Positions 777 to 61,531 of a DNA stretch of 64,000 bases are shown here, piece by piece. Under the pieces are notes generated by a model. It was not told the DNA's origin, ran no database searches, and worked only from the letters and a program-made list of their open reading frames with translations. Numbering within the stretch: the stretch's first letter is position 1; the number at the start of each line of letters is the position of its first letter. A program made the position numbers and the translations under genes. Source of the DNA: a virus. Taxonomy: Duplodnaviria; Caudoviricetes. Location of the stretch: IMG/VR virus record IMGVR_UViG_3300021060_000011, positions 1 to 64,000 of that record; one strand, 5' to 3'.

Positions 777-1448
777 ATGGCAAATCCCACCTACGCCATC
801 GCCGACCTTCACGGCCGGTTCGACCTCTTCACGCAAGCTGTTGCAGCCATAGCCGAGCGCAGCGGCGGCAAGGTCGTCTTCACGGGCGACTACGTGGACC
901 GTGGACCACAGAGCAGAGAGATCATCGAGGCCCTAATGTCCGGGCCGCCCGAGGGGCAAACGTGGATCTGCCTTAAGGGCAACCACGAGGACATGATGGC
1001 CGAGACCATCATGGCGCCCCTGGAGCCGGATTGGTGGATCGGCAACGGCGGGGCTGCCACGGTGCGGTCCTACGGCGGCACGGTCCCGCTGGAGCACGTC
1101 CGCTGGGCCGCACGGCTTCCGCTCTATCACGAGACGGAGCACCACATTTTCTGCCACGCGGGCGGGGACGAGACCAAGCTGCTCGCCGAACAGACCGAGC
1201 GGGACCTTTGTTGGTTCCGCTGCGCGCGGGATCGAGACTACAGCATCGACGGCAAGCACGTCGTGCACGGCCACACGCCGTTCAAAGATGGACCTGTCTG
1301 TCTGCCCGGCCGCACGAACCTCGACACGGGCGCTTACGCTACCGGGCGCCTCGTCATCGGGGTTTTCGATGAGACGAAGCCTGGCGGTCCCGTCGAGGTG
1401 ATCGAGATCACCGCACTTGCCCCCTCCCTCTCCGGGAGGACGGTTTGA
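777..1448 (+). CDS. Metallophosphoesterase / Ser-Thr protein phosphatase (lambda NinI/PrpA-like)
   Basis: DLHG, GDYVDRG, GNHE, HAG, HGHT, DTG motifs. Confidence 0.92.
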   Translation: MANPTYAIADLHGRFDLFTQAVAAIAERSGGKVVFTGDYVDRGPQSREIIEALMSGPPEGQTWICLKGNHEDMMAETIMAPLEPDWWIGNGGAATVRSYGGTVPLEHVRWAARLPLYHETEHHIFCHAGGDETKLLAEQTERDLCWFRCARDRDYSIDGKHVVHGHTPFKDGPVCLPGRTNLDTGAYATGRLVIGVFDETKPGGPVEVIEITALAPSLSGRTV

Positions 1449-1885
1449 TGGCCTGGAAGCTCTACGACGTGATCGTGGCCGGCTACGGCACCGAGGTCAT
1501 GACCGGGCGCTCGGCGTCTGCCGTGCGTGCCGCCGCGTGGCGATCCTCTGCCTTCGGCCACATCAGCTTCGGCGACTTCATGAAGATGTGCCGGGTGAAG
1601 ACCCGAACGGAGCCCTTGGTCTCCGATGGCTACAGCTACGTGCGCCGCCAGTACGGGGTTGATCCGCAACTCGGCCAACGCGTCCGGCTGCCGGCCACGT
1701 GCGGAGGCATGCCCGACCGGGAGGGCGTGGTGACCTACCCCGGACAGAGCACGGCCTGTGTTCACGTGCTGGTGGACGGCCGGAACCATTCGAGCCTGTT
1801 CCATCCGTCCGACGTGGTGTTCCCCGAGTCCCCCTCCATCCCACCGGACGGGCGTTCTGTTCCTTCCGTTTCGGGGAGGGGGTGA
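1448..1885 (+). CDS. hypothetical phage protein
   Basis: TGATG-coupled ORF, SD GGGAGG. Confidence 0.7.
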   Translation: MAWKLYDVIVAGYGTEVMTGRSASAVRAAAWRSSAFGHISFGDFMKMCRVKTRTEPLVSDGYSYVRRQYGVDPQLGQRVRLPATCGGMPDREGVVTYPGQSTACVHVLVDGRNHSSLFHPSDVVFPESPSIPPDGRSVPSVSGRG

Positions 1886-2845: not shown

Positions 2846-3066
2846 GCGAGCCCGAGAACATCGACGTGGATCTATACGACAGCCGAGCGGAGGCCATACA
2901 AGCCGCCCTCGACTCGTCGGAGGCCGGCGACACGATTGTCGTGTGTCGCGGCGACTGGACCAGCTGTGCCGCAGCCCGTGCGGAGACATGCGAGTTCTGC
3001 GCTCGCGTGCCTTGGCGGGTCGGCCTGACGACAGCAGAGGTCATGACGCTGGCTTCTGCGTCCTAG
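2842..3066 (+). CDS. hypothetical protein
   Basis: GTG start overlapping previous stop, SD AGGAGG. Confidence 0.6.
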   Translation: MSEPENIDVDLYDSRAEAIQAALDSSEAGDTIVVCRGDWTSCAAARAETCEFCARVPWRVGLTTAEVMTLASAS

Positions 3067-3067
3067 T

Positions 3068-3105
3068 CCCCCTCCCCTCAATCTGTTTTCGGATTGGGGC
3101 GGGGG
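3068..3105. terminator. hairpin between convergent genes (probable terminator)
   Basis: CCCCTCCCCTCAATCTG-TTTT-CGGATTGGGGCGGGG imperfect stem-loop. Confidence 0.5.
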
Positions 3106-3123
3106 CGCTCGCGGCGGGTGAGT

Positions 3124-3360
3124 TCAATCCTTGAGACGGACGCCTTTTCCGCCGGTCCGCATATCTCCCGGCTCCATGAAGACGACACCAGCCGCCTCGA
3201 ACGCCTCTTGAATTGCTCGAAGCGTACTGCTGCGAATATCGCGAACACCCGCGTCCACGTTCCTGATCGTGGCGACCGACACTCCGGACCGCGCGGCTAA
3301 ATCCTTCTGTTTCCAGTCAAGCAGCCCGAGAGCCGCGCGCATCTGAGCCGCGTCGATCAT
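3124..3360 (-). CDS. XRE-family HTH transcriptional regulator
   Basis: MIDAAQMRAALGLLDWKQKDLAARSGVSVATIRNVD...IQEAFEAAGVVF. Confidence 0.9.
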   Translation of the reverse strand: MIDAAQMRAALGLLDWKQKDLAARSGVSVATIRNVDAGVRDIRSSTLRAIQEAFEAAGVVFMEPGDMRTGGKGVRLKD

Positions 3361-3400
3361 GGCGGCGTCGTACACGCGAATGGGTTTTCGAGCGAGCAAA

Positions 3401-3465
3401 TTAGCTCCGAGCGCTAAATTGACGTTGACCACGCTATTGTTAGCGCTTAGAACTAATATCGTCAA
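3401..3465. promoter_or_regulatory. Divergent promoter region with two 17-bp inverted operators
   Basis: TTAGCTCCGAGCGCTAA (3401-3417) and TTAGCGCTTAGAACTAA (3440-3456; reverse complement matches the first 14/17); TTGAC hexamers on both strands. Confidence 0.7.
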
Positions 3466-3478
3466 TCGGAGAACGCAT

Positions 3479-3859
3479 ATGCCCTCCCGCCCCACTCCCC
3501 GCCAGGCCAAGCCGAAGCCCGACGCCGCCCTCTACGCTGATTTCCTCGCCGCCATGATCCGCGTGATTGAGCACGGCGAGACGGTCACCGTTCACGGCTA
3601 CACCGTGTCCTGGCCCAAGGCGCAGCCGAACTACTTCGCCCTGCACGTAGACGCGCCACGCACCGTTCGTGACATCTGGACCGGCGAGCTTCGCACTATC
3701 GTTGGCAGTCAGGGCGGTAGCGCCCGTTGCGCCAAGAAGGCCGCCGCAAACTTTGCCTTTCAGGTGATGGATGATCGCGCTTCCGTGACGCGCATGCTGG
3801 CCGAGGCCAAGCCCGGCATCCTGAGCGGCAGCGTCACGCACATTGCGGAGGCCGCGTGA
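3479..3859 (+). CDS. hypothetical phage protein
   Basis: SD GGAG, first gene after divergent promoter. Confidence 0.7.
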   Translation: MPSRPTPRQAKPKPDAALYADFLAAMIRVIEHGETVTVHGYTVSWPKAQPNYFALHVDAPRTVRDIWTGELRTIVGSQGGSARCAKKAAANFAFQVMDDRASVTRMLAEAKPGILSGSVTHIAEAA

Positions 3860-4140
3860 TGCCCCGCAAGCTCTCTGACACCCGCATTCGCATCCTGCGT
3901 CGCCTCGCGAGCCGAGACCTCGACCGTGACGGCGCCGAGTGCGCCCGCGACATCGCAATCGGCTGTGGTGAGGCTCACAGGGCGTCGGATTGGGCGACTG
4001 GAGCCCTGCGAGAAATGTCGTTTGCGTGGCCCAAGCCGCTCGTTCGACGCCTCGGCGTGACGTTCGCCAACGCCCGCACATGGACGATCACGGACGCCGG
4101 CCGCGAGGCTCTGGCTAAGACCGACGCCCCCTCCCCCTAG
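3856..4140 (+). CDS. small winged-helix-like protein
   Basis: C-terminal WTITDAGREAL wing motif. Confidence 0.55.
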   Translation: MMPRKLSDTRIRILRRLASRDLDRDGAECARDIAIGCGEAHRASDWATGALREMSFAWPKPLVRRLGVTFANARTWTITDAGREALAKTDAPSP

Positions 4141-4177
4141 CCCAACCTTCCCCCTCTCGAACAGGAGACCGGACGCT

Positions 4178-9980: not shown

Positions 9981-10775
9981 TCAGGAGTTCCAGATGCGGG
10001 AAAGGGTAGTGGCGAGCCATCCGCCGACGCTGCCGGTCTGAACGGAGGGTTCGGCCGGCGGCAGCACGCCGCTCTTGCGGGGCGCAGGCGCGACCAGCGG
10101 GCCGACCGTGACGGGCGGGATGGGGACGGCCTCGACGCCGCCAGGGACGTGCTGTGCGGCCAGCAGCGCGGCGCGGAAGTCGCGGAAGTACCCCGCGATC
10201 AGATCCGCTTTGTCCGTGCCGTTGATGATGGCCCGTGCGCCTACGGGGATCGACGCGCCCGTGCCGAAGAACTGCGACAGCTTGCGGCCGGTGAACCAGC
10301 CTTCGGCCATGCCCCGGAACATGATCGCGGCGGCGACGTCCGGCACCATCGCCATGTCGGGCGTGACGGTCAGGTCCATGGTCTGGTCAAGGATGCCGAG
10401 GGCCTGAAGCTCACCTGTCGCGCGGCGGTAATTGGCCCGCCCGGTCAACTGGACGTAGCCCCGACCGGCGAACTTCACGCCGTCGCCCGGCACAGTGTTG
10501 CCAAGATCCTTGGCGACTTTCGGCCGGTCGCCCTGCGGATCGTACATCCGGCGATAGTACGCGTCCCCGCCGTACTCTTTGACGGGCAGCATGGTCTTGG
10601 CCGTCTCATGGAAGGCCGTCGCGAGACAGTAGGCCAGCGCGTCGGTGGCGAGAAGCGGCGGGCAGGCGTCCAGCAGGCTTTCCATGCCGGAGACCTGCCC
10701 CTGGGACAGCGATCCACCGAAGGGTTTGGTGCGCACAGCATTGAAGAACGCCTGCCGATTGAGGGCAGCGGCCAT
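9981..10775 (-). CDS. endolysin, GH19 chitinase-like
   Basis: AY.LAT.FHET, LGNT.PGDG.KF.GRGYVQLTGRANY, AR.IINGTD.A. Confidence 0.92.
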   Translation of the reverse strand: MAAALNRQAFFNAVRTKPFGGSLSQGQVSGMESLLDACPPLLATDALAYCLATAFHETAKTMLPVKEYGGDAYYRRMYDPQGDRPKVAKDLGNTVPGDGVKFAGRGYVQLTGRANYRRATGELQALGILDQTMDLTVTPDMAMVPDVAAAIMFRGMAEGWFTGRKLSQFFGTGASIPVGARAIINGTDKADLIAGYFRDFRAALLAAQHVPGGVEAVPIPPVTVGPLVAPAPRKSGVLPPAEPSVQTGSVGGWLATTLSRIWNS

Positions 10776-10806
10776 AGTCTCTCTCCGGGGATTGTCAGAA
10801 AATCAG

Positions 10807-10835
10807 TTGCAACCGGCGCGATGGGCGCGCATTCT
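10807..10835 (+). promoter_or_regulatory. sigma70-type moron promoter
   Basis: TTGCAA-N17-CATTCT. Confidence 0.6.
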
Positions 10836-10841
10836 GAGTTG

Positions 10842-10898
10842 GTCACGACCCGCCACAGGATCTGGTTCGCCAGACTGCAAAAGGGCGGGTCTTTTCGT
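10842..10898 (+). ncRNA. candidate ~55-nt small RNA / attenuator hairpin
   Basis: GACCCGCC...GGCGGGTC-TTTT closing stem with inner TCTGG-TTCG-CCAGA. Confidence 0.45.
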
Positions 10899-10997
10899 TG
10901 AGGGGCAGACAGGTGTTGCGGGCGCTCATTAGAGGCCCAAGCCGGTTCGAGTCCGGTCGGAAGCACGGGGTTCGACTCCCCGCTGCCTACTTCCTCA
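10899..10997 (+). ncRNA. tRNA-like RNA with two T-arms
   Basis: GCCGG-TTCGAGT-CCGGT and CGGGG-TTCGACT-CCCCG; acceptor-like GGGCAG/CTGCCT; no D arm, no CCA. Confidence 0.55.
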
Positions 10998-11086
10998 GAA
11001 CGTAAACCTCGGCATAAACACCGCCGTGGGAAGGTGTCCTGACTGCCAGGGTCGTGGTAGGAGCGTTTCTCTCACGGGAGATCGCG

Positions 11087-11374
11087 ATGAGTGACAACGT
11101 CCGAATTCTGCAACTCACCCCGCCGACCGGCGACGGCGTTCAGTGCCGGGCCATTGCCCGCGAGCGCGAGACGGCGCGCTGGTCGCAGATCACCCCACTC
11201 CTTCAGGAGATCCAGATCGGCAAGGTGCCGGCCGGCAGCAGGTTCGCAAACTACCAGGACGGCTGGGCGACCTTCACGGCGCCGGATGGCACGGAGATGC
11301 GCTTCGACCTACGCGAGCCGCTGAAGCTGCATGAGGGCGCCGGGATGGCGACTCCCACGGGCGCTATGAACTAA
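11087..11374 (+). CDS. moron, hypothetical protein
   Basis: SD GGGAG; opposite strand to late operon. Confidence 0.65.
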   Translation: MSDNVRILQLTPPTGDGVQCRAIARERETARWSQITPLLQEIQIGKVPAGSRFANYQDGWATFTAPDGTEMRFDLREPLKLHEGAGMATPTGAMN

Positions 11375-11383
11375 GGTATCCCC

Positions 11384-12310
11384 ATGCGGCACGCTGTTGT
11401 TTTTTCTTCCTTCGTTCCTGACACCGAAGTGGCAAGAGATGTAGGCGCCTATTACATCGACCTTTTCCAGCGACGGTTCCGCGACTGCACGATCTATGTT
11501 GGCATCAATTCCGGTTCATCTCGCAGTTGGCACGCGAGTTTAGCCGACGCAGATCTTGACATCGTCATCTGCGAAACGCCCGACCGCCTCGTCGTAAACT
11601 CCGATGTTTCGGGGTTTCAGTCCGCCCTACGAACGCTTCGTAATACGCGCGCGCAGCACGACTATTACTGGTTTGGCCACACAAAGGGGGCGACCCACGA
11701 CGCGTTTCGGCACACCGATGGGTTGCGAGAGGTGATGGAGCGAGAGTTCTGGTCTCGCCGGAGCGAAGTGGAGACATTTTGCGATCCGACACGACACGGC
11801 ACGTTCTGTGCCCTCCCGATGCTTGCAACAAGCAGATCAAGCGAGACGGTCGATTATCTTCGCCGGATCTTTCCGGCTTTGTACCCTCCGGTCGGGATCT
11901 TTCCATACGCTACATTTTTCGGGATGACCGGAACTGCTTTACGCAACTTCTTAGCCAGTGCCGCCGAAAGCTTTTTTACGAAAAATCTTATCGAGGGGAC
12001 AGGAGTCTCGCGATACTTCTTCGAAGGCGGGTTCTCTTGGGTGGCCGATATGGCAGGCTTCGAGCCGTACTTGCTCCAGAAAGGCCCTAGGTTCCCGCCC
12101 GATGACCCTCTTCTGAGGGCACCCTGCCGCGACTATGAATTCGTCGCCAATCAACAGCGGGCCGAGAAGGTGGTTGAGATGTGGCGAGCTGATAGGGCTG
12201 GCCACGATTTCGCCGGCTGGCCGTTGTGGGCAGGAGAAATGATAGACTATCAAGGTAATATCTACGGAGCAGATGAATTTTTCCGCATGAACCCTGATTA
12301 CAATCCATGA
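11384..12310 (+). CDS. moron, putative glycosyltransferase-like protein (HTKG motif)
   Basis: YYWFGHTKG and RYFFE motifs recall RgpF-like GT-A enzymes; AT-richer; convergent with tailspike. Confidence 0.5.
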   Translation: MRHAVVFSSFVPDTEVARDVGAYYIDLFQRRFRDCTIYVGINSGSSRSWHASLADADLDIVICETPDRLVVNSDVSGFQSALRTLRNTRAQHDYYWFGHTKGATHDAFRHTDGLREVMEREFWSRRSEVETFCDPTRHGTFCALPMLATSRSSETVDYLRRIFPALYPPVGIFPYATFFGMTGTALRNFLASAAESFFTKNLIEGTGVSRYFFEGGFSWVADMAGFEPYLLQKGPRFPPDDPLLRAPCRDYEFVANQQRAEKVVEMWRADRAGHDFAGWPLWAGEMIDYQGNIYGADEFFRMNPDYNP

Positions 12311-12313
12311 ATA

Positions 12314-14431
12314 CTAAATTGTTACGTCCATGTTATAAATTATGTTGCCAGCCGTACTCAGACCGAGGATGTAGACGGCCATGGTGATGTTCGTGGCGTC
12401 TGCGGAGAGGAAAGTTGCGGTCCCGCCTTGAAACGCAGCGCCACCCGACTGCGACGGAATTGCTTGCAGAGTGCAGTGACATTTATTCAAGTTTGGCGTC
12501 CCCGCCAGTCCATGGGGGACCAGAATGAAGCCTACAAAGTTACCGGCGCCCGACGCAGCCGCCACGAAAGAGCCCGTCCCCGTCAGATAAGGGAATTTGC
12601 GTGCAAGCTTGAACCCGGTCGTCTCGTAGGAGACGACCAGTTTCGAACGATCCGACATGGAGAACTCGGGGGCGCCGCTGCCGGCGAACACGCACCGGCC
12701 GGTGAAGAACGGCCCGCCCGCCGAGCCGTCGATGCACACGAACGCCCGATTGCAGCCCTCGAACGTCGCGCCGATGGTGACGTTCTTCGTTTGGTTGAAG
12801 ATCGCGCCCGTGTCGGAGATTTGGATGAAGACGCTGCCGGTGAAGTCGACGTTGTCGGACAGCCCGTCAAACACCGCTCCGAACTTGCCGCCAAAAATAT
12901 AGTCCTGAAACCGAGCGAACTTGAGCACAGCATTCGGGCCGTTTGCGAGAGTGCTGTCCTGCTGGATCACCGGCCCCGTGGTGATTTGGCCCGTGCTGTC
13001 GTACCAGTTCGACGTGCTGCGGACATCGAGGATGCCGGGGCCGGTCGGCCTGATAAGGAACGTGGTTCCATTCGAGATGCAGAACGAGTTTCCGGTCAGC
13101 CGGAGAAGGAGGCAGCATTCGAGGACGACGCTGAAATTGAACGTCTGAACCGAGTTGAAGTTTACGTGCACGCCTTCGGGCTTGTTCTGTGTTCCGTCGT
13201 AGTTCGTGCGAGCGCCACGGCAGCCGATGTATAGGAACGGCCCCAAGCCGCCGCAATAATTCTGCTCGATGTGGTTCTCGATGCAGTGGATCGGCTCATC
13301 CTTCGGCCGGTCGAGCGCGATGGCGAAGCTGTCGTTGTTTCGACGAAAGTTGTCGAACGCGTTGTGGTGGTAGTGGCTCAGTGGCCCGTTGCTGTGAATG
13401 ATGTCAGAAGCGACCGAGCCGTCGTTGTCGGCGATGAAATAATTGTCGTAAATATACCACGCGGCCCACTTGCCTTGCTTGATGCATCGGCCCGAAACAC
13501 CGTAATGGAAGAACGCCAAGCCAGCGATAGTCCCGCCGTTGCCGACGATGTTGAACATGTCGATTGCGGCATTGGTGCGGATCTTGACCCTACGGTCCTG
13601 GCCATTGCCCGGCTTGCAGATCGTCGTGAGTCCGGGAACGTTGACCGGCGCGGCGAAATAGTAATCACCAGGGGATGGGACGACCCACTTGCCCTGCGCG
13701 TTTGCGGCATCAACCGCAGCCTGCCATGCCGGGCTGTCGTTCGTCGTTCCGTCGCCCTTGGCGCCATACGCTTTCGGGTCGATCGATCCGTTCGCGGCGA
13801 TCGCGGCGAACCGGGCGTCATTGCCTTCGGCGTAGGTGCCCGCAGCCGTTCCGAATGCGATGCCAAGGGCGGCACGTGCCTGCGCGGCCGTGCCGGTCAG
13901 GACGGAGCGTCCGGACGTTGAGCTATCCGTGATCTGTGAGGCTGTGATCGGTACGCCAGCGGCGACCCGCCCCTCAATCGACGTGATGGCGCCCTGGACG
14001 TTGGTGTAGCCCTGGCTCGCGGGCGGGACCACAGAGACGTTCGCAGCCGTGGTCGCCACCGATCCGCCCGAGGTGATGCCGAGGGCCTCCAGAACCTGGG
14101 TGAAGTTCACGTCCTGCGGCGGGGCCGTGGAGCCCAACAGGTTGGCCTTGAACGTCCGCGCTGGCATGGTCGCGAGCTTGGTGTTGGTCTGCGTCCCGTC
14201 GCCAGTCTGCGCCGTGGGAAGCGCCGTGACCGGCAGCGCGCCGATGAGGCCCGTTCCAGGGTCCTGCACCGGCACCAGCCCGCCGGCCGGGATCGTGGTG
14301 AGGCGCTGGGTCTGGCGCAGATCGAGGGCGATGCGGGTGGCAAGCCCCTGCTTGTCCACGCGGATGCCGCCGCCGTTGCGGACATCGGTGGGATAGGACG
14401 CGTCGAGGCGCCCGCCGAAACCGGAGGTCAT
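12314..14431 (-). CDS. tailspike / beta-helix depolymerase (pectate lyase 3-like)
   Basis: IDPKAYGAKGDGTTNDSPAWQAAVDAA followed by Asn/Gly-rich beta-helix repeats. Confidence 0.85.
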   Translation of the reverse strand: MTSGFGGRLDASYPTDVRNGGGIRVDKQGLATRIALDLRQTQRLTTIPAGGLVPVQDPGTGLIGALPVTALPTAQTGDGTQTNTKLATMPARTFKANLLGSTAPPQDVNFTQVLEALGITSGGSVATTAANVSVVPPASQGYTNVQGAITSIEGRVAAGVPITASQITDSSTSGRSVLTGTAAQARAALGIAFGTAAGTYAEGNDARFAAIAANGSIDPKAYGAKGDGTTNDSPAWQAAVDAANAQGKWVVPSPGDYYFAAPVNVPGLTTICKPGNGQDRRVKIRTNAAIDMFNIVGNGGTIAGLAFFHYGVSGRCIKQGKWAAWYIYDNYFIADNDGSVASDIIHSNGPLSHYHHNAFDNFRRNNDSFAIALDRPKDEPIHCIENHIEQNYCGGLGPFLYIGCRGARTNYDGTQNKPEGVHVNFNSVQTFNFSVVLECCLLLRLTGNSFCISNGTTFLIRPTGPGILDVRSTSNWYDSTGQITTGPVIQQDSTLANGPNAVLKFARFQDYIFGGKFGAVFDGLSDNVDFTGSVFIQISDTGAIFNQTKNVTIGATFEGCNRAFVCIDGSAGGPFFTGRCVFAGSGAPEFSMSDRSKLVVSYETTGFKLARKFPYLTGTGSFVAAASGAGNFVGFILVPHGLAGTPNLNKCHCTLQAIPSQSGGAAFQGGTATFLSADATNITMAVYILGLSTAGNIIYNMDVTI

Positions 14432-15003
14432 GGGGTGTCCTTGTCGTTGGGAAGCGGCCAGACGCCGGAGAGATCGCCGGCCTGCACCTGAGCCGCGCGC
14501 CAGAGGCTTTCCTCGATGTACTCGACGGAGAAGCCCACGGCGTCCTTGAGCGCCAGGAGGTCGGCCCGCAGCACGTTGTTGGAATAGTTCACCCGTTCGT
14601 CGGCGACAGGACCGAGGGGGTGCCCCGCGTCGAGAAGCGCCTTGATCTTGGCAAGCACCTCGTCTCGGCGATTGCCGCCCGGCGTCTTCCAGAGGACGAG
14701 CCCCACGCGCCAGTCGCCGAGCGTCGGGTTGTCGGGCGCGGTGGGCGGCTTGGGATCTGGTGCCGGCTGGTAGGAGACGGACCAAACCGGGCGCTTGCTG
14801 CGGCTCACGAGCGTGCGGCTCGTCTCCATCTGCCCCTCCGGCGCCGCATCAGGCTCCGGAACCACGTAGACACCGAACGCCTCGCGCTCGTCGTCAGACC
14901 ACAGCATGACCGTAGCGTAGGAGGCCGTGACGCCCTGATAGGTGACGTCCTCGCCATAGGGGAGAAGCGCCCAGCCGGAGCTGGCGCGGATTGCGTGCGT
15001 CAT
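14428..15003 (-). CDS. tail fibre accessory / chaperone-like protein
   Basis: position; W..DEREAFGVY motif; ATGA overlap. Confidence 0.55.
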   Translation of the reverse strand: MTHAIRASSGWALLPYGEDVTYQGVTASYATVMLWSDDEREAFGVYVVPEPDAAPEGQMETSRTLVSRSKRPVWSVSYQPAPDPKPPTAPDNPTLGDWRVGLVLWKTPGGNRRDEVLAKIKALLDAGHPLGPVADERVNYSNNVLRADLLALKDAVGFSVEYIEESLWRAAQVQAGDLSGVWPLPNDKDTP

Positions 15004-61439: not shown

Positions 61440-61476
61440 CCCCGCCCGCAACCCCGAATAGAGGACGACGCACCGC

Positions 61477-61531
61477 AAAAGAAAAAGGCCCCCAAGACGT
61501 TTCCGTCCCGGAAGCCTTCTCCGTCTTCAGC
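61477..61531 (-). ncRNA. repABC counter-transcribed RNA (ctRNA)
   Basis: minus promoter TTGACG-N17-GATTCT (61566-61538); ends GGGGGCCTTTTTCTTTT; repB-repC intergenic. Confidence 0.85.

Follow-up and report, generated by a model that had tools for sequence, protein, structure and literature searches.

What kind of RNA is encoded where two T-arms lie almost side by side in a phage genome, and does this arrangement occur elsewhere? The question arises from one intergenic gap in a 125,103-bp IMG/VR virus record, the first 64 kb of which (64,000 nucleotides) is referred to here as the window. A sequence-only reading of the window had placed a tRNA-like RNA with two tandem T-arms at positions 10899-11086 and described it as heading a moron. 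The element proper is shorter. It is 88 nucleotides in length and occupies positions 10902-10989 on the plus strand, as delimited by its alignment to a model of related phage elements (R2), by its minimum free energy (MFE) fold, and by a second copy in a metagenome contig (L245).

Location and anatomy of the element

The window DNA is G+C-rich, and ARAGORN identifies a tRNA-Ser(CGA) at positions 26-115. The two-T-arm element is placed between the lysis and tail genes of a prophage, in an intergenic gap of 311 nucleotides. An endolysin gene (9981-10775, minus strand, phrog_181) is on the 5’ side of the gap, and an ORF of 95 codons (ORF95, 11087-11374, plus strand) is on the 3’ side. ORF95 is followed in the 3’ direction by ORF308 (308 codons, 11384-12310, plus strand). 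A tailspike-like gene (12314-14785) is convergent to ORF308.

Near the other end of the window, a ctRNA_p42d match (RF00489, 54.5 bits) was identified at positions 61475-61520 on the minus strand, inside this virus-classed record. In repABC plasmid replicons, ctRNA_p42d is the antisense RNA. A phage-plasmid is one possible identity of the record; a prophage call that extends into plasmid-like DNA is another.

The element begins with the 5’ strand of an acceptor stem (10902-10908) and ends with the 3’ strand of the same stem (10983-10989), after which no CCA is encoded. Positions 10903-10908 pair with positions 10983-10988 to form six base pairs, including one G-U, and the end position, 10902/10989, is a G/A mismatch. 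The 5’ strand leads into an 11-nucleotide D-like segment (10909-10919) that contains the motif CAGGTG and has a stem of 2-3 bp at most. Hairpin 2 (10920-10938) has, in the MFE fold, two stem segments of 4 bp and 3 bp, a single bulged G, and a loop of 4 nucleotides. It is separated by two unpaired A nucleotides (10939-10940) from T-arm 1 (10941-10957), which has a 5-bp stem and the loop TTCGAGT. A linker of 8 nucleotides (10958-10965) follows and contains GG and then AA, as does the linker of the family described below. T-arm 2 (10966-10982) has a 5-bp stem and the loop TTCGACT and stacks on the acceptor stem, for a continuous stack of 11 bp rather than 12. The two T-arms start 25 nucleotides apart. 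The acceptor 5’ strand, the linker, and T-arm 2 are unchanged in the L245 copy.

Several parts of this structure had been recognized from the sequence alone. The two canonical T-loop hairpins about 25 nucleotides apart are confirmed, the acceptor-like stem does abut the second T-arm, and the MFE fold of the element agrees with the structure drawn in that reading. The statement that the RNA has no D arm and no CCA holds for a D-arm of normal size and for an encoded CCA, both of which are absent on inspection of the element, and is qualified by the weak D-like segment. Other parts had to be given up. The loop read as a CAT anticodon folds as a 7-bp bulged stem with a 4-nucleotide loop, and no 7-nucleotide anticodon loop is present; hairpin 2 occupies the position of the family’s tetraloop hairpin and not that of an anticodon arm. 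The inner stem that was drawn around the first T-arm (10913-10917/10962-10966) is complementary in this copy, but T10914C in L245 breaks a pair without compensation. This stem has no counterpart in the nearest family members, L199 and L058, nor in L034.

A strict T-arm pattern, defined as a 5-bp stem with a G-C closing pair and a TTCRANY loop, has only four matches on both strands of the 125-kb record. One is the tRNA-Ser, two are those of the element, and one is at 99335. Because the pattern is this rare, two T-arms within 25 nucleotides would be expected by chance in roughly 1 of 1000 cases. In fold energy, the element does not surpass shuffled sequences (z = −0.6), which is frequent in G+C-rich DNA.

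Standard detectors do not report the element. ARAGORN, one of the checks that had been proposed, makes no tRNA or tmRNA call there, and its only call in the window is the tRNA-Ser. Rfam 15 has no tRNA-clan, tmRNA, C4, or YrlA match in positions 10700-11300 at E values up to 10, which speaks against the suggested identities of that kind. A weak mascRNA match (15.6 bits, E = 2.8) covers only the 17 nucleotides of T-arm 2. No match was found by BLAST of the region against phage and plasmid collections, and in 80 endolysin-homologue loci the element is beside the gene in none. An exact pattern of T-arm 1 plus linker, searched in genome contigs, found only an ordinary tRNA and one unrelated site.

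Two other tRNA-like signals were noted in the record beyond the window. ARAGORN reports a 97-nucleotide “tRNA-?” at record positions 88193-88289, whose anticodon has four bases (ggtc), whose extra arm is long, and whose T-loop is poor, and the R2 model has a weak match at record positions 99314-99407 on the minus strand.

A recurrent family of phage RNAs with two T-arms

A pattern of two T-loop cores 8-18 nucleotides apart was scanned against IMG/VR. More than 117 loci with two closely spaced T-arms were found, which is a lower bound, and the matches are heterogeneous. Among them, about 45 distinct elements have a five-part layout in common. This layout consists of a 7-bp acceptor, a small D-arm with TGG in the loop, a 5-bp tetraloop hairpin, T-arm 1, a linker, T-arm 2, and the acceptor 3’ strand. 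The linker is 7-11 nucleotides long with a conserved G and A, each at least 90% conserved in a MAFFT alignment of 25 members.

The layout is supported by covariation, one of the checks that had been proposed for this locus. In a MAFFT alignment of 12 members that was not fitted to any model, 90% of the cells pair, a value that falls to about 50% if partners are shifted along the alignment; compensatory changes are seen in 13 of the 26 pairs. For 30 diverse members the values are 94% against 45-52%, with compensatory changes in 22 of 26 pairs, in an alignment that was fitted to the model and hence leans towards it. The remaining four pairs do not vary, and these are the ones that the search pattern fixes. 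The acceptor stem (family helix 1) covaries in all 7 pairs, and the tetraloop hairpin (family helix 3) in all 5. Invariance of the T-loops is partly by design, since most members were collected with a pattern that fixes both loops. In Synechococcus phage B3, which carries a homologue found independently of the pattern, the arm 1 loop is TTTGATT.

Many members are located among tRNA genes. Same-strand phage tRNA arrays hold 26 of 44 members, each in a tRNA-sized gap. A tRNA array has one two-T-arm gene, and the arm 1 loop is always the same; its sixth base is U in most members. Three isolate genomes, those of Synechococcus phages S-CREM1, B3, and B23, carry the element between tRNA genes, in a gap without annotation. 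ARAGORN labels several members of the family tRNA-Ser and two tRNA-Leu. One locus (L079) differs in that a complete element (1246-1331) lies inside a permuted, two-piece tmRNA gene (1135-1491, plus strand; RF04321, 96.6 bits; RF01849, 81.9 bits). It is positioned between the CCA end of the tmRNA and the 5’ end of the coding piece, in the segment to be excised. Across 45 family loci, no common neighbouring protein was found beyond close relatives, and no partner is thereby indicated. Among 401 genomes from a single bacterial phylum, only three matches to the pattern were found, and the reversed control has none.

Rfam 15, applied to 18 family loci at gathering thresholds, reports the flanking tRNAs and no two-T-arm family. 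The best Rfam match of a core member is tRNA-Sec, with 21 bits against a gathering score of 47. A search of the literature on two or extra T-arms and on phage tRNA-like decoys found no description of the family. The two-T-arm family is thus new to Rfam 15, and no description of it was found in the literature searched.

Two other kinds of RNA were encountered among the loci. A different RNA with two close T-loop cores is present in L024, L025, L033, L038, L041, L048, L066, L077, L081, L117, and others. This recurrent RNA is framed by repeated GTGCA words, ends in GGTGCAAAAC, and falls outside the five-part layout. L041 also holds a ROOL RNA at 2902-3497. In seven loci (L015, L022, L070, L072, L096, L110, and L111), a single additional T-arm and a conserved tail of the form CGAATG ... 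TGAGGTTATGGTAAG come immediately after an ordinary tRNA, in viral contigs of up to 410 kb. Conserved and linked to tRNA, this combination of tRNA, lone T-arm, and tail is a motif of its own in viral contigs of very large size.

The family resembles several known tRNA-like RNAs in part. Type-II tRNAs (Ser/Leu/Tyr; RF00005) share a 7-bp acceptor on a T-arm with a TTCGANY loop, a GG in the D-region, a length of 85-95 nucleotides, an additional arm that follows the central hairpin and precedes the T-arm, and a location in phage tRNA arrays. Unlike them, the family has a tetraloop hairpin in place of the 7-nucleotide anticodon loop, and its extra arm is a full T-arm followed by the conserved 7-11-nucleotide linker. 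The tRNA-like domain of tmRNA, including the permuted two-piece forms (RF01849, RF04321), likewise combines an acceptor and T-arm without a normal D-stem, has a short G-rich D-analogue, and does not decode. The element differs from tmRNA in having a second T-arm and in lacking a tag reading frame, pseudoknots, and the long P2 helix, and its 88 nucleotides compare with about 300-360 for tmRNA.

The mascRNA/MEN-beta RNAs (RF01684) and the C4 RNA of P1/P7 are also tRNA-like cloverleafs with a shortened, non-decoding equivalent of the anticodon arm, and their release presumably involves RNase P together with tRNA processing at the 3’ end. The former are eukaryotic and the latter is a phage antisense family, and both are unrelated in sequence and lack two T-arms. 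YrlA and the bacterial Y RNAs (RF02553) mimic tRNA as non-coding RNAs with T-arm and D-like modules, and they occur in bacteria and phages, in some cases within tRNA clusters. YrlA, however, is circularly permuted and has a Ro60-binding stem, and the element has neither property.

The relation of the window copy to this family was assessed with R2, which was built from 30 phage family members with the window excluded. R2 aligns model positions 1-89 end to end to 10902-10989 with a score of 36.8 bits, or 38.1 bits with an alternative 5’ strand at 10883. The window’s own type-II tRNA-Ser scores 30.0 bits, and no tRNA scores above 25.7 bits in a set of phage loci (487 kb) that was selected without reference to the T-arm pattern. 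The margin of the window copy over ordinary tRNAs is real but modest, and the approximately 7 bits over the type-II tRNA come partly from simply having two T-arms.

The window copy has two T-arms, the second of them adjacent to a closing acceptor, a linker with GG and AA, and a hairpin with a 4-nucleotide loop, as in the family. Its D-arm is poor and its acceptor has 6 bp. Where the family layout has a D-arm with a 3-4-bp stem and TGG in the loop, the window copy has the CAGGTG segment with 2-3 pairs at most, a degenerate form that L199, L058, and L103 show as well at the equivalent position. The nearest relatives are G+C-rich solo copies, namely L199 (48 bits), L058, L085, and L103. Their acceptor stems are different in sequence and fully pairing, and a GG..A linker is common to the window copy, L199, L058, and L103. 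The earlier proposal of a non-canonical tRNA mimic gains support from this end-to-end match to a family that is itself supported by covariation. That 10902-10989 is a divergent, G+C-rich member of the recurrent phage family and also encodes a stand-alone, non-decoding tRNA mimic that acts in trans and is matured by tRNA enzymes is a joint reading to which we give about even credence.

A second copy and mosaic surroundings

The second copy, in contig L245, lies within a stretch of 133 nucleotides that is 94% identical to window positions 10902-11034. The element itself is at 3614-3701 on the minus strand of L245 and differs from the window copy at five of its 88 positions. T10914C falls in the unpaired D-like segment. 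T10930C and A10931G change the loop of hairpin 2 from AUUA to AUCG and leave its stem unchanged. C10942T and T10957C are in the stem of T-arm 1, where pairing is kept (C-G to U-G and G-U to G-C). This is the pattern that a constrained RNA with the family structure would show, although five changes are too few for statistics.

The surroundings of the two copies differ. In L245 the element is approximately 580 nucleotides from a divergent endolysin gene, the stop codon of a convergent ORF of 882 amino acids comes directly after it, and ORF95 and ORF308 are absent. A block common to the window, L245, and L213 (10995-11034, plus strand in the window) forms the C-terminus and stop codon of the 882-amino-acid ORF in L245. 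In the window, this block is therefore probably a relic of a recombination joint.

Relatives of the neighbouring genes show further rearrangements. In L215 and L216, which carry the closest homologues of ORF95 (88-89% identity), the upstream intergenic sequence measures only some 75 nucleotides and lacks the element. L213 and L214 retain the window’s flanks, and an unrelated insert of approximately 170 nucleotides replaces positions 10833-10994. In the endolysin relatives L119-L122, homology ends at 10798-10806, about 25-30 nucleotides past the start codon at 10775. An element that occurs without ORF95 and ORF308 in L245, and moron-carrying loci (L215, L216, and L213) that have no element, leave the view that the RNA heads a moron unsupported. 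On this comparison of sequences, the presence of the element beside ORF95 and ORF308 would be a product of mosaic recombination and not a functional unit.

The two ORFs themselves have no match in Pfam, PHROGs, or PADLOC, and a search of viral contigs with peptide patterns found no ORF95 relatives. ORF308 has homologues on Methylobacterium chromosomes, where a GT-D-like glycosyltransferase is the neighbour and no tRNA-like RNA is near. This neighbour suggests that ORF308 could be a conversion gene that modifies surface polysaccharide. Across ORF308 (11384-12310, plus strand) the G+C content is 54-56%, below that of its surroundings, and no family match was found. A role of ORF95 or ORF308 as a toxin or HEPN partner of a tRNA-like leader was considered and rejected on the missing matches in the three collections and on the Methylobacterium ORF308 homologues that have no tRNA-like RNA.

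A hairpin over the ribosome-binding site of ORF95 had been reported to hide the Shine-Dalgarno sequence of the gene starting at 11087. This hairpin does exist, at 11067-11080. It covaries in homologues along with ORF95, and it is part of the ORF95 leader, unrelated to the tRNA-like element. The sigma-70 promoter proposed upstream was not recovered, as a scan of 10600-11400 finds no sigma-70-like site. The candidate hexamers by eye (10807-10812 and 10830-10835, with a 17-nucleotide spacer) match at only 4 of 6 and 3 of 6 positions.

Immediately upstream of the element, a G+C-rich hairpin (10849-10890) is followed by a T-rich run (10890-10899). Together (10849-10899, plus strand) they may form a leader structure or one that resembles a terminator. 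Against the abiF model RF03085, the hairpin reaches 21.7 bits (gathering score 37, E = 0.25). The likeness is confined to this upstream hairpin, where the letters of the outer stem and a CAAA bulge resemble the consensus; the inner hairpin is unlike that of abiF. The outer stem is common to L245, L119, and L121, where the inner parts differ and the CAAA is missing. No match to Abi_2 (PF07751) was found in the 125-kb record. An abiF identity was rejected on these three grounds (a score below threshold, a CAAA that is not conserved, and no Abi_2 gene), and the likeness is probably coincidental. The abiF RNA (RCd22) is the RNA antitoxin of the AbiF HEPN toxin (bioRxiv 10.1101/2025.04.15.648962). 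Motifs at or above the abiF gathering score do occur 3-4 nucleotides before two-T-arm elements in L042 (2444-2480) and L101 (204-240). A further abiF motif is present in a tRNA array in L028 (4205-4241, minus strand).

In L245, L119, and L121, the hairpin block can be read by eye as a promoter-like pair of hexamers with a 17-nucleotide spacer. It directly precedes the two-T-arm element in L245 and precedes a different structured RNA in L119 and L121. In the latter two, a stretch of approximately 200 nucleotides follows the block (L119, reverse complement of about 3860-4080; L121, about 3950-4170), and its ends are complementary at long range. This stretch has no Rfam match and is possibly another structured RNA cargo. 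L119 additionally contains a 92-nucleotide tRNA-like sequence with a single T-arm, which ARAGORN calls tRNA-Gly(gcc).

A putative trans-acting tRNA mimic and its alternatives

The most likely reading of the element is a tRNA mimic that would act in trans. Positions 10902-10989 would form a stand-alone gene for a small tRNA-like RNA whose transcript is cut by the tRNA-maturation enzymes of the host, in that RNase P would make its cut near 10901/10902 and the 3’ end would be trimmed beyond 10989. For bacterial RNase P and the CCA-adding enzyme, a minihelix of acceptor and T-arm is an acceptable substrate. Excision in the manner of a tRNA is suggested because this minihelix is the minimal substrate and because members of the family sit in tRNA slots and, in L079, in the excised segment of a tmRNA. 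The mature RNA would not decode, since a tetraloop stands in place of the anticodon loop. As decoy or cofactor, it would bind a factor that reads the tRNA elbow or the acceptor arm, and so divert or recruit it. The conserved second T-loop, together with the conserved G in the D-loop and in the linker, suggests two elbow-like modules. The lack of an anticodon loop makes the earlier idea of a decoy for anticodon nucleases unlikely as stated; a decoy for factors that read the acceptor/T-arm or the elbow is possible.

A more specific role can be proposed, which we consider improbable. The two-T-arm RNAs could represent a new class of RNA that phages use for counter-defence. As non-decoding tRNA decoys, they would titrate host toxins or immune nucleases by means of their doubled elbow and acceptor arm. 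Their targets would be enzymes that attack tRNA by the acceptor end or the elbow, for example nucleotidyltransferase toxins of the MenT/AbiEii type, toxSAS enzymes that modify the tRNA CCA, or HEPN RNases. Phages would carry these RNAs alongside other RNA decoys, such as toxin-less abiF RNAs.

The element might instead act in cis, as a signal for RNase P and 3’-end processing that punctuates the transcript between the upstream hairpin RNA and the downstream RNA and leaves an excised piece with no role of its own. The mascRNA of MALAT1 and the tRNAs of mixed operons are precedents for such punctuation. The position of the element between the upstream hairpin and the ORF95 leader agrees with this, as do the abiF motifs that end 3-4 nucleotides before the elements of L042 and L101, and the L079 copy in a segment to be removed from a tmRNA precursor. 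In tRNA arrays, however, the neighbours have their own processing signals and an extra punctuation gene of 90 nucleotides is unneeded. One acceptor/T-arm minihelix would suffice for processing, but lineages that differ greatly retain a second T-arm, the G and A of the linker, and the tetraloop hairpin. The L245 copy, moreover, has no same-strand downstream piece to release. A purely cis-acting signal is therefore unlikely. A non-functional origin, raised earlier as a nested tRNA remnant, would also place the element outside the mimic reading. It would be a leftover in a mosaic junction, either of two tRNA 3’ fragments or of a tRNA gene that recombination or integration events had disrupted. 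T-arm 1 and its 8-nucleotide linker have the exact length of a T-arm plus a 7-nucleotide acceptor strand and discriminator, and they resemble the 3’ end of an ordinary tRNA (L200). The locus is a recombination hot spot with other inserts in relatives, the relic of a neighbouring gene lies just 3’ of the element, and the D-arm is degenerate. Set against this origin is an acceptor stem that closes over both T-arms as it does in the family, with covariation there in all 7 pairs, and the retention of every stem in L245 after 6% divergence. No further copy or direct repeat of the element was found in the 125-kb record, and the tRNA-Ser at the start of the record is 10.9 kb away with no sequence in common. 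Decay of this kind is quite unlikely.

The remaining alternative keeps a decoding function. If arm 1 is taken as an anticodon arm, its loop UUCGAGU presents the anticodon CGA, and the element becomes an odd tRNA-Ser with an extra hairpin before this arm and a long unpaired variable region after it. The tRNA-Ser and tRNA-Leu labels given by ARAGORN to family members point this way, the loop TTTGATT of phage B3 would read UGA, which is also a serine anticodon, and the window loop has a G at the would-be position 37. In most members, however, this sixth loop base is U, and position 37 of a tRNA is almost always a purine. Arm 1 has the full T-arm signature (GG, TTCGA, N, T, CC), the L-shape would be disrupted by a hairpin placed after the D-arm and before the anticodon arm, only a single “anticodon” has ever been seen in this design, and the Rfam tRNA models stay below threshold. 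We regard a decoding tRNA-Ser as very unlikely.

The conserved, tRNA-shaped RNA with a duplicated T-arm, putatively non-decoding, extends from cyanophages to G+C-rich temperate phages. Defining the family would correct the annotation of phage tRNAs, where ARAGORN sometimes miscalls members as tRNA-Ser or tRNA-Leu and where those of S-CREM1, B3, and B23 are unannotated. Culturable cyanophages carry core members, which makes the function directly testable. Phage tRNA clusters are increasingly read as tool-kits against host immunity that targets tRNA, and this RNA would either add a new component to them or constitute a tRNA mimic of a novel kind.
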